Origin: Catajapyx aquilonaris
Lineage: Eukaryota
DNA: 55,948 nt
Direction: 5' to 3'
Assembly (NCBI GenBank): GCA_000934665.2
Contig: KZ537985.1
Span: 124,001 to 179,948, forward strand
The notes beneath the pieces were generated by a model. The model was not told the origin of the DNA. It searched no databases and saw nothing but the letters and a program-made list of their open reading frames with translations. Positions 858-48,067 of this stretch are shown here, one piece after another. Numbering within the stretch: the stretch's first letter is position 1; every line of letters begins with the position of its first letter. Both the position numbers and the translations under genes were made by a program.

Positions 858-981
858 GGCTGTCACACGACTGTTTACAAACCAAGCGTACCCCCGATCC
901 CTCGCTGTCCCCTCCAAACCAAGCGTCCCCCCGGTCCCTCGCTGCCTGTTCCACGCCATCTCCCGGCCAAAATCCCAACTA
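858..981 (+). promoter_or_regulatory. Composite site: partner motif GGCTGTCACACGACTGTTTACAAA plus CTCF-like motif with N10-AACTA extension
   Basis: Partner motif 858-881; CGCCATCTCCCGG 954-966; 10 nt; AACTA 977-981. The core resembles the reverse complement of the CTCF consensus CCRSYAGRTGGCG. Confidence 0.6.
878..951 (+). repeat. 37-bp tandem duplication (2 imperfect copies)
   Basis: CAAACCAAGCGTACCCCCGATCCCTCGCTG.. at 878-914 and CAAACCAAGCGTCCCCCCGGTCCCTCGCTG.. at 915-951. Confidence 0.85.
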
Positions 982-3900
982 GTGACTAGTGGCGTATCAC
1001 AATTTTTAAAACCAAGCCCAATTCCGAGTTCAGCCAAGCCCGAGTAGCATATGCGCCAAAGTTCCGCAACGTTGCTTCCCTAAACTGTCCTAAAATAAGC
1101 CAGGCAAGCTTACTTGCGACGCCAGTCCCCATCATGCTATTATGCTATGAAATAATTGGCTACATGGCTACAAACTTGTGTGTAATGGAGTCGAGCCGGG
1201 TCTGCAGTGCAGGGAGGAAACCTATTACGTAGATTCAACGTGTCATGTTGAATTAGCCCTTGTTACATCCAGCTTGCAATTCTCTTGATGATACTAGACA
1301 TCAACTCTATATAAAAAAAAGTGGGTCAAGTAAGTAAAAATAAGAACCTGCAAAAAAAATTGCCGATAAGTCGATCGATTTGTTGCACTATTTTCGGCAC
1401 ACCTTGCACCTTTGAATAATGAAAAGGCAATTTTGTTGTTGTAACCATCGGTGTTATACGAGTACACTTTGCACTTTCGCCTGATTAAATTTCCATGTTA
1501 GTTAGCCTTAATGAATATAAGGACATGTTCTGGTTTTCATACACTTGCTAATTATCAACACCAGTCCTATTTTCTAATGTTAATGCGCCTCCCCTCCGGG
1601 TAAACCATTGTAATATGCAAACCTTGGGGAGTGTCTAGGCCTCTAAATATTTTGCAGCTAATTAGGCCTACCTTGCTTACATAACAAAGAAGTTTCGCCC
1701 ATACAAAAAAGTATATAAACCAGATTGTTGGAACCCAGCCTATGTCAGCACATATGTTTAATGAACCGTTTCACACCGACCGACCGTGTCGTAAACGACA
1801 AGTTGATTAAGCTATCCATCTCTTGAGCTAACCTAAGAACTAAACATTTGGTCGAAAAACTCACGGCCGAAAAAAAAAACTCTGAAGCACTTCATAATTG
1901 GGAAGCTCTCAGGGCTTCTGTCAACATTTGGAATACGCCAACCAAGCATTTGGTCCGTCTAACTGCTCCCAGCCTCTAATGAAGAGCCAGGGATGGCCAA
2001 ACATGGACCTCCCCCCCCCCCACCCAAAAAAAAAAAGTTTTCATCAGCTACATGCAACGCCTGAGTAACGATTACCGATAGCCTCTTTCAATCAAGTTGC
2101 TCCAATTTTTTTAACACCATTAGACTGTATAGCCGGTACACTGTGACAATATCAAAAACGGACCTGGAACATATATACACAACAACAACAACAAAAAAAG
2201 AGCTGGAGATAGCGTTCCTAAGCCTGGTGGAGTCTTCTCGGAACGTCCGGAATTTCCGCAATATTCCCAGGCGAAGGGATATGTGTAGTCGACAGGGTGT
2301 TAGGGAGGGACGGGAACGTGGGGGATTCCCCCACGAAGTTCTACAATTCCAGTTTCCATTGTCCATATGAAAACTGTGGAAAAGAGGAAGCTGGAGCATG
2401 AAAAATTTCATGTTCCCCTTCACTTACCATAAGAACCTGGTTTCCATCACGAACTACAATTTAAGCTACATTTAACATACTAACAAATGATATAACCGTT
2501 TTTAAATTCAAATTTTTTTAAAAAATGATTTCCTACACCACAGACAGACTTGAAATGCACGTCAAGTACAGATGGAAACACTGAAAACTTGTCCGATTAT
2601 GCGACTTTGAGTAGAAATTTTCCTAGGCATTGAAAGGCAAATTCTCTCTGGGGAGACTGGCATTCTGTGCACACAAAATCTACATTGCTTCAACTTATGT
2701 AAAGTTAATTACGACTTCGAAGACACCCAGAGTTAATTGCAACTGGATTGGGGGGGAATGGAAGGGGGGGGGGGGGNGGGGAAATGGGACCAGTTTCTGG
2801 TTTCTATTCAGCTGGAATTGGAATCAATAAAAGCTGTGGTCCAGTCCGTTGAATGACGTCGACCATTGATGGGAGAATCGTTTCCGATTTATTGCTCAAC
2901 TCCCCCATAGTACCTACCCGACCATCAACAATAACCGGGGTCATTCCCGGGTTCAATTAAGAGCTGGGATTACCTTAATCCCCACGACTGCAACTCTTTC
3001 TATCATCCTTATTATATCGCACCCCCTTGTAATTCGGTTCTACTTGGAAAACGACCCTGGAAAAAAGGTGATATCGTAGAGCTGTGGCCCCATTGCGGAC
3101 ATTCCCCTTCCAAAAAAAAAAACCCAACCTAAATCCAGGACTGGTTGTAAACAAGGCTGACTATTAAGGGGGGGCCAACCCATTTTGTGGGGGGCCAAGC
3201 ACAGTGCTTTTAAGTGCCTATTTACCGCATGAGATATCTGCTAAATCGAAGTAAAAGCTGTGATTTGTGGGCCTACTATGAAGCGACTTAGCTACAAAAT
3301 TCGGGCCGTGTTCCGAATAAACTGCGGATGGGTTTTCAAAATGGCATGAAAATACAAGGTGTTCCAAATAACATATGCTGTTCACGCTACATATGCAAAT
3401 ATTCAATGATGTACCAATATAGTGGACTAATTAGAACACTTGATCCCAGGCTGTGATATAATTGGTATACAATAACCATGTTACAAATATCTAGAGTGCA
3501 TCAAACTGCATATTAATAGTGTTCCGTTGCTTCACATTAATGTACAAAATAATTTGCAGGCTGGCAATAGACACAATATTGCTGTGTGTTACATCCAAAC
3601 CGAACGTTTTGTCCCACCCTGTACAGAAGTTCTCAACGTGGCAAATGTCTTCAGTGACAGTTTCCTGGGGTTATATGTACACTATTCGAGTCTTTCCTAT
3701 CAGATCCTCCTGTCCCGGGTAACGGCCTGCAAGTCCCTGAGTTGGCACCTTGGAACGTGTGGGTCCCAGATGTGCCGCACTCCCAAACTGCTCCGATTCG
3801 ACACGTCCCGTCGCAAATCCACACCCAATGGGAATTTCTTTCCATCCCCTCAACTTTTCTTATATATGCGACACAAAAAGAATGAAAAAAAAAGACATAT

Positions 3901-46562: not shown

Positions 46563-48029
46563 AGTAGTGAAGAGGCAGGCTTCTCCATCACAAACACATC
46601 CAAAATGACTCTCTAAGCCTCCATATGAGCCCCAAACTACGCACCAAAATGGCCTAATCCTTGCACGCAGTGTGCGATACCACTTCACCCATGTGCATCC
46701 AAAGCGAACCAAGTTGTGCTGCACATGTACTTTAGAGGCTCAGTTGACTAAAGCTCCCACCAACCCCGAAGCCAACAAGTTGCCATAGTTCGCTAAGTAT
46801 CGGAAAGTGCAGGATGGGAAAAGGAAGAGCAAGAGAGAGGAGGGTGCATGGTGGAAGGCCCTTTAAGACTCAACGGAAACTATGGAAACCTACTTATTGA
46901 GCTTGGTAAACAAGGCTATCTTCAACCCAAAAGAGCACCCATTTCCCGGAAATGTGGAGGTGAAGATGCTAAAAACAGTGTACTCCTCAACAAAGAGGAT
47001 GTTATATACCGACATAAAAAATGGCTCTCGTGGTTTATCGGGCTTGTGGGTTTGTGGTATACTGGAATATACTGTACCTGACAAGTCTTCCTCGTTTTTT
47101 CCCCCCATGCGGTTGACGAGGGTACCTCTTATCTAAACGAAGTGTTCCCTTTGGGCGAATAAAATAAGATGGGGTAAAAATGTGGATCCCACAGTGCAGA
47201 TTAGTAGTCATATCAATGGCACCCAACATATTTTAACAACACGATGGAAGGCGTCACAAAGATTCTCTCTCCAAAAAAATATATGCTCTAGCAGCCATGA
47301 TCAGCTCGCATAAAATTTGCATAGCGCCCGGGATGCGCTTGTTCGCTTCATGTTGCCTATAGGCTTGAATTACTGAACCTGACAACTGATATACAAAATT
47401 CAATTGCAAAAGCTCTCCTCTATTCACAGATCCAACCGCAACAGTACGGCAACTGAATCAGGGGAGGGGAAAAAATGTTTTGTGGCAAAATCAGTCATTC
47501 CCAATATTTCGACCATTTAGTTCCAACGATAAAAAAAGGCCCCATACTTGAAAGCATCATCATATTGCCGCATGTTGAATTAACGCCATCATACACGTTG
47601 TACCAACAACGAGCTGATTGGTTGCCCCTCAGCATATAGAATGTTTCTGCACCCTATAATCCACAACATCTCGCACTCGACCGAACCCGACGTTTCTAGG
47701 GAACTGACGTCACTCTCGTTTCTGAACGCTCATTGACCTCAAGACAACCGTACTGAAAAACCTCTTGTTTCCTTCCCCTGCAAGCGTATTTCCAGCAATA
47801 CAACTGCAGCTGAAAATAAACCCCGGTCCTGAAACATGTATGCTCGCTGACTTAACCGCAAGGAGTGAACAGAATCAGAAATGACAGCGACTGTCCCCAA
47901 AAAAAACCTCCGTTTAAGAGGAACAAAAGCGCACCATTTGCCTCTGGATCGAATTTTAGGAGCCAGAAACCAGCAGCTGCAAGCTAATCCTCCATGGACT
48001 AATGAAATCTGACAGCCCCAAAAGTGGAC

Positions 48030-48067
48030 TCACTAGAGGGCAGTGACGTCTGAAACAGTCGTGAAAC
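48030..48067 (-). promoter_or_regulatory. Composite partner motif plus CTCF-like site
   Basis: Minus strand GTTTCACGACT (48067-48057), then TGCCCTCTAGTGA (48042-48030). Confidence 0.55.

Follow-up and report, generated by a model that had tools for sequence, protein, structure and literature searches.

An 11-nt motif paired with CTCF-like sites in Catajapyx aquilonaris: conserved core of a probable old, strongly diverged dispersed repeat

A 55,948-nt stretch of the Catajapyx aquilonaris genome (GenBank assembly GCA_000934665.2, contig KZ537985.1, positions 124,001 to 179,948 of the forward strand; this whole stretch is called the window below) contains seven exact copies of the 11-mer GTYWCACGACT, most of them followed on the same strand by a sequence resembling the core of a CTCF binding site. 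A first-pass annotation of this DNA regarded the pair as a candidate composite insulator module. The question raised by the locus is whether the two motifs are sites maintained independently of each other or the remains of one sequence that was copied. We favour the second answer and put at roughly 55% the probability that the two motifs together form the conserved core of a dispersed repeat, old and strongly diverged, that carries a CTCF-like site. This repeat, of about 200-260 bp, would probably be mobile but non-autonomous, and the feature as a whole is most likely a repeat family of known kind with CTCF-like sites, not a new composite insulator code.

Across both strands of the whole window, the strict 11-mer occurs at 862 (+), 14684 (-), 24459 (-), 27807 (+), 41513 (-), 43314 (+) and 48057 (-), exactly the coordinates and strands first annotated. 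Its rarity, for which a chance figure of about 0.1 copies had been given, was confirmed by dinucleotide-preserving shuffles, which contained 0.04 copies on average and of which none (0 of 100) reached seven. Likewise, four strict copies (862, 24459, 27807 and 41513) continue as nnnTACAAA and one degenerate copy as nnnTACAA, as had been described. This copy lies at 44524 (+, TCCACACGACT) and a second degenerate one at 13899 (+, GTAACACGACA); the existence of both had been recognised correctly, but their places (13895 and 44526) were a few bases off. Given that the 11-mer with up to two mismatches is barely above chance in the window (40 matches, 29.4 expected), it is the surrounding sequence that identifies these two copies, not the 11-mer itself: 44524 has a 17-nt run in common with 24459, in register, and 13899 a 10-nt run in common with 43314, at the same offset.

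The pairing of the 11-mer with the CTCF-like core is real and statistically very strong. A same-strand YRCCMTCT is found 14-81 nt downstream of six of the seven strict 11-mers, so that the pairing, order and orientation noticed in the first pass stand, and under random placement the mean number of such pairs is 0.16, with 0 of 20,000 random sets reaching six. The sole strict copy lacking a YRCCMTCT partner, 41513, continues into A-rich sequence. The description of the partner as CTCF-like is supported, with one qualification. The core is enriched by itself in the window (CGCCATCT, 13 occurrences against 1.17 expected; CCATCTACYGG, seven against 0.02), its best copies extend to a two-part unit of 33 nt, and the 13-nt CTCF consensus used in the annotation, CCRSYAGRTGGCG, is present with at most one mismatch at 10 sites against 0.49 expected. 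However, only two of the six partners of strict 11-mers (those of 862 and 24459) fit this consensus at that threshold, while the remaining four fit the 8-nt half only and by reading differ from the 13-nt consensus at three positions (a match to a consensus, not to a position weight matrix).

The copies are homologous well beyond these two motifs. Up to five blocks could be distinguished per copy, and the words common to copies keep a single order, A-B-C-D-E. Block A, which measures about 45 nt (...TGACCCCGyAAGGTCACTCAGGGTCGTGGTCC...), precedes block B by 25-85 nt in 43314, 48057, 41513, 14684 and 18226 and, in weak form, in 862. Block B, of about 40 nt, has the 11-mer at its centre; a gapless alignment of nine copies gives the consensus AGCCTcg...CaGGCtGTCACACGACTGnCTAcaA, the pairwise identity of the copies being 0.53 for the block as a whole but 0.9 or more within CACGACT, and the CACGAC core, which includes a CpG, is whole in all nine copies beside variable adjoining columns. 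An extended pattern for this block, AGCC-N8-GGCTGTCWCACGACT, has five matches with up to three mismatches, none being expected. Block C is the CTCF-like core lengthened to (a)CATCCCACGCCATCTACCGG, block D (TCCCAACTAG) lies downstream of it, and behind D, 862, 18226 and 43314 have the T/A-rich block E (ATCACAA..TTTTTAAAA). The exact C-D spacing CATCTNCCGG-N10-AACTAG, a 33-nt unit, has four matches against none expected, two in modules and two in the arms of a hairpin. In total, eleven modules with two to five blocks each were recognised in 56 kb, in either orientation, and these are given below together with two related sites.

820-1011, + strand: module 862, with a weak block A at 820-849, block B at 844-881, the 11-mer at 862-872 followed by TACAAA, a tandem duplication (37 nt) at 878-951, C-D at 948-984 and the T/A-rich block E at 1003-1011.
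5740-5792, + strand: module with a decayed block B and C-D at 5754-5792 (C profile, E=7e-6); a repeat resembling miniature inverted-repeat transposable elements (MITEs) starts at 5804.
13812-13976, + strand: degenerate module, with the start of block A (TGACCCCG) at 13812, block B at 13879-13916 (containing GTAACACGACA) and two cores, both CGCCATCT, at 13922 and 13945.
14626-14787, - strand: module 14684, with block B at 14675-14714, the 11-mer at 14684-14694, C-D at 14626-14664 and block A at 14758-14787, split by a MITE-like inverted repeat, the remainder of A lying past 15139.
18145-18314, + strand: module 18226, with no strict 11-mer, block A at 18145-18190, a decayed block B at about 18205-18240, C-D at 18249-18283 with the exact two-part spacing and the T/A-rich block E at 18307-18314.
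24407-24486, - strand: module 24459, with block B at 24450-24486, the 11-mer at 24459-24469 followed by TACAAA and block C at 24407-24440, an exact match to the 13-nt CTCF consensus of the annotation.
27797-27876, + strand: module 27807, with block B at 27797-27826, the 11-mer at 27807-27817 followed by TACAAA and block C at 27841-27876.
41504-41600, - strand: module 41513, with block A at 41558-41600, block B at 41504-41542, the 11-mer at 41513-41523 followed by TACAAA, and no block C.
43230-43411, + strand: module 43314, with block A at 43230-43272, block B at 43294-43332, the 11-mer at 43314-43324, a D-like CCATCTAGTGAC at 43374-43385 and block E at 43401-43409.
44505-44576, + strand: degenerate module 44524, with block B at 44505-44543 and a CTCF-like core at 44557-44569.
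48026-48131, - strand: module 48057, with block A at 48084-48121, block B at 48048-48085, the 11-mer at 48057-48067 and CCCTCTAGTGAG at 48029-48040.
32960-33047, unstranded: triple cluster of CTCF-like cores (GCCATCTACYGG), three within 90 nt in alternating orientation, with no block B nearby.
40712-40780, unstranded: perfect hairpin, each arm of which is a C-D block (CATCTrCCGG, 10 nt, AACTAG).

The fixed order of five blocks, of which two measure 40-45 nt, argues for copying from a common ancestor and not for the independent gain of two sites. The first-pass annotation had seen two independently maintained sites rather than one transposon family, a view that the gapless B block of about 40 nt and the recurrence of as many as five blocks in one order do not support. 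In addition, 14684 and 27807 can be aligned from B through C over 102 nt with 70.6% identity (E=1.6e-8), and profiles of the blocks found their own source copies again (six for A, nine for B and eight for C). No further copy of A or B was detected in the window by these searches, the next best matches having E=2.8 and 0.71, respectively; the C profile additionally picked up the triple cluster at 32960-33047. The eleven modules are dispersed copies in both orientations that are homologous past the short motif. A candidate RNA hairpin just 5' of the 11-mer was rejected on inspection by eye, as the stems fall in differing registers and the AGCC/GGCT halves are conserved in sequence and do not covary.

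Relatives elsewhere in the genome were sought in the organism's own DNA, in the contigs of four sequencing runs of one sample, at 80% likeness to the stretch 43150-44650, which holds one strict module (43314), one degenerate module (44524) and a MITE that served as positive control. In the first run (X1), unique sequence had a summed depth of 27.8, block A of 43314 reached about 1400, with 33 contigs bearing variant letters that are also present in 48057 and 41513, the depth at 43297 was 412 (seven contigs, and 11 in the second run, X2), and the bin containing the 11-mer had a depth of 309. The A-B part of 43314, spacer included, has 11-50 times the unique summed depth on 7-33 contigs and is present at other places in the genome. 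Fourteen contigs part from the window sequence at 43271, and their shared continuation, about 70% identical by eye to the A-to-B spacer of the window, indicates a second subfamily with a homologous spacer. As evidence against its own proposal, the annotation had named genome-wide copies that align through their spacers and flanks; this is what we found for the upstream flank and the A-to-B spacer of 43314, but not for its C-to-E part or for 44524.

The order of events at one module bears on its age. A MITE-like inverted repeat at about 14785-15139 lies inside block A of 14684, flanked by a 3-bp duplication (TCA on the module strand), and when the flanks are joined across the insertion 21 of 26 block A positions are restored (by eye). 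Because the insertion splits block A, module 14684 must be older than the MITE. The density of eleven modules per 56 kb in both orientations, the genomic relatives and this later insertion also fit an old dispersed repeat.

Could the blocks be instead the remnants of an old segmental or tandem duplication of a non-mobile sequence? We regard this as very unlikely. Local duplication would suit the closest pair of copies, 43314 and 48057, which lie 4.7 kb apart and have 87% identity in 39 nt of block A, and other local duplicates are present in the window, but the modules occur in both orientations and at irregular distances with no duplicated sequence between them, and each run has 7-33 other contigs with blocks A and B of 43314.

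Several observations weigh against an old dispersed repeat and temper our estimate. No convincing terminal inverted repeats, target duplications, consistent tail or TG...CA ends of the long terminal repeat type were seen by eye at the modules, and no coding partner was found, as none of 145 open reading frames (of 163 of at least 75 amino acids) reached the Pfam cut-off, two giving weak matches below the threshold. Nor did any transfer RNA (tRNA), 5S or 7SL head match in Rfam at E<=10, either in the window or in 43180-43470. The B-to-C spacers could not be aligned: three of 36 pairs reached p<=0.05 against shuffles, where 1.8 were expected, with a mean z of 0.27, although lengths of 14-83 nt leave this comparison little power. 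Within the window the first-pass statement that the spacers are unrelated was therefore correct, the longest of them (862, 81 nt) including 37 nt from the internal tandem duplication. In the genomic comparison, the C-to-E bin of 43314 had a depth of 74 in X1, 2.6 times the unique value, and the degenerate module 44524 was at unique depth at 80% likeness, so that genome-wide relatives are established only for the A-B half of 43314. The three cleanest copies (862, 24459 and 27807) lie outside the stretch compared, summed contig depth is not equivalent to copy number, and the four runs stem from one sample, possibly the source of the window assembly itself. Finally, seven copies of a whole, CpG-containing 11-mer beside spacers that cannot be aligned are not what plain neutral decay would leave, and a repeat origin needs some constraint on block B in addition; this block is apparently constrained and is a candidate protein-binding site.

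This constraint is central to another explanation, namely that the modules, whatever their origin, are kept by the host as composite regulatory modules in which C-D is bound by a CTCF-like protein and B by a second DNA-binding protein, acting as boundary or promoter-proximal elements of which the window is a local hot spot. It is compatible with a repeat origin, the two not being exclusive, and we consider it rather doubtful. The retention of pairing, order and orientation in six of the seven strict copies would fit it, as would the survival of CACGAC in all nine B blocks despite its CpG and amid variable columns, the freedom of the spacers in length and sequence, and the enrichment of CTCF-like cores outside the modules too, including the triple cluster and the palindromic pair. 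The few tens of contigs that resemble 43314 in the whole genome, compared with eleven modules in the window, could mean local enrichment, and the MITE-like elements in or adjoining four modules might reflect open chromatin. On the other side, five ordered blocks that include ones of 40-45 nt point to descent by copying, boundaries would not lie as densely as one per 5 kb of gene-free DNA, and the conservation of B is in part an effect of ascertainment, the copies having been found via the motif. Eleven modules in 56 kb, in both orientations, are a repeat-like density and not the insulator-like one that the first-pass proposal would suggest. A joint version, which we judge quite unlikely, would make B the putative site of an undescribed sequence-specific protein partnering a CTCF-like factor, with repeat-born modules that the host retains as composite, oriented boundary elements and the window unusually dense in them, hence the MITEs at their edges.

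If the modules are indeed copies of an old dispersed repeat, a full copy would read, 5' to 3', A (about 45 nt), B (about 40 nt, with nnnTACAAA after the 11-mer), C-D (the 33-nt two-part CTCF-like unit) and the T/A-rich E, the stretches between the blocks having drifted through substitutions, indels and one tandem duplication. Such an element could have seeded a ready-made CTCF-like site across the genome, much as SINE B2, a short interspersed nuclear element (SINE), did in rodents, and block B may have been kept whole as a putative protein-binding site, useful either to the source copies, whose promoter or enhancer it would belong to, or to the host once a copy had inserted.

Blocks D and E suggested yet another possibility, that the modules are external promoters of the small nuclear RNA (snRNA) type, SNAPc-dependent and U6-like, with D as the proximal sequence element (PSE), E as the TATA box, A-C as distal elements and a different small RNA behind each. 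The D blocks of 862 and 18226 fit the invariant ATTC-CAA of the Drosophila PSEA, as given in PMC1761439, at all but one position, and by counting, the T/A box of 862 and 43314 falls at the place of the TATA box in the same source (promoter positions 34-41). In all, two or three copies have D and E blocks similar to a PSEA half and a T/A box of insect snRNA promoters, spaced approximately as in these. Unlike in these promoters, the likeness is not kept in all copies, the box being 5 nt off in 18226 and the PSEA-like positions lost in 43314, and no known small RNA lies downstream: no Rfam family was found behind any module, no downstream sequence is conserved among copies, and a T-run is absent behind 862 over more than 300 nt. 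We consider this origin highly improbable. Block A was also examined as a derivative of 5S RNA or tRNA and found no support either in Rfam at E<=10 or in ARAGORN, whose relaxed settings gave 3, 32 and 169 scattered calls; among the 35 calls obtained with the first two of these settings, a single one coincides with a module, and on the opposite strand.

The hairpin at 40712-40780 has a perfect 27-bp stem (z=-9.5) and holds its pair of C-D arms at 40717-40775. As a mir-8/mir-200 precursor it scores 41.4 bits, short of the Rfam gathering threshold (47 bits), with matches on both strands. As its arms consist of C-D blocks, two CTCF-like sites forming a palindrome are a likelier explanation than a microRNA.

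A scan of metagenomes for the 11-mer followed by TACAAA returned 20 loci, and alignment of their flanks assigned 17 of them to one protein-coding-like bacterial gene. In these 17 bacterial contigs (listed as L001-L015 and L018-L020) the sequence is coincidental and unrelated to the window. None of the 20 loci has CGCCATCT downstream, and the likeness of one short contig (L016) to the 41513 copy is limited to the motif and an A-rich run.

The window, with a G+C content of 42-49% and a CpG observed/expected ratio of 0.84, resembles eukaryotic DNA poor in genes; the Pfam comparison revealed no genes, ARAGORN with default settings gave no tRNA gene and Rfam no family at gathering score. MITE-like inverted repeats are numerous, and four modules contain one or have one beside them. 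Modules are adjoined by such repeats at 5804 and 43233, and those at 43456-43877 and 42961-43233, which flank 43314 on both sides, have depths of about 93,000 and 26,600, respectively, against 28 for unique sequence. A hairpin-forming repeat is present in two copies (5804-6171 and 26681-27040) that are 91-98% identical, and the 20 nt with which it begins (ATCATGGTCTTAGAATAC) are similar to block A in its 3' portion. There are also an AT-rich tandem array with a 26-nt period at 40924-41331, adjoining module 41513, and a tandem repeat with three copies of 172 nt at 36277-36835. A palindromic 9-mer resembling the cAMP response element (CRE), TGACGTCAC, occurs 11 times against 0.22 expected (for instance at 5390, 10900, 10984, 26529, 26579, 37790 and 47705), several copies being inside or beside inverted-repeat elements, and AAAATGGCG occurs seven times against 0.79 expected.

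Among known motifs, the closest to block B that we compared is Motif 1 of Drosophila, which has the 7-nt GTCACAC in common with the majority form of the 11-mer; M1BP, a zinc-finger protein linked to insulator activity, is reported to overlap less with CTCF than with CP190 or BEAF-32 (PMC8263732). As an M1BP site block B was discarded, since Motif 1 matches none of the nine B blocks with up to three mismatches and the window as a whole has three matches against 1.44 expected. Unlike in Motif 1, the invariant part of B is CACGACT and not the GTCACAC run, so the first-pass remark that the motif is not a recognised one holds among the motifs compared. A literature search with the block sequences as strings returned primers only, the available parts of 10.64898/2026.10.19.760054 and PMC10013865 yielded no CTCF partner motif, and no invertebrate case of CTCF sites spread by a repeat was present among the 15 best-ranked of 19 full-text matches, which is not proof of absence.

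If our interpretation is true, a repeat family has spread CTCF-like sites in this genome by a process documented in mammals (PMC3368268), and new boundary sites, or sites proximal to promoters, would readily be supplied by this family. Scans for motif co-occurrence would call for caution as well, given that an ordered, freely spaced motif pair can be the relic of one decayed element. The CACGACT core standing beside spacers that cannot be aligned marks B as the block in which a bound protein might be sought.

Two systems described in PMC3368268 come nearest to the elements of the window. The first is the two-part CTCF motif of mammals, in which M1 and M2 span 33/34 bp with centres 20-22 bp apart; the C-D unit of the window is likewise 33 nt long, with a core and a second box at one fixed distance on the same strand, a likeness of geometry, and it differs in that the exact spacing is found in only four instances in the window. 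The second is the set of SINEs, B2 in rodents and SINEC-Cf in dog, that carry and multiply a full-length CTCF motif (Schmidt et al. 2012). Like these, the family proposed here would be a short dispersed repeat with a CTCF-type motif and copies in both orientations. Unlike B2, its copies are far more diverged, have no SINE hallmark, tRNA-like head or tail, and contain predicted sites only, and unlike in these SINEs, a second conserved block, B, travels with the CTCF-like site of the window.

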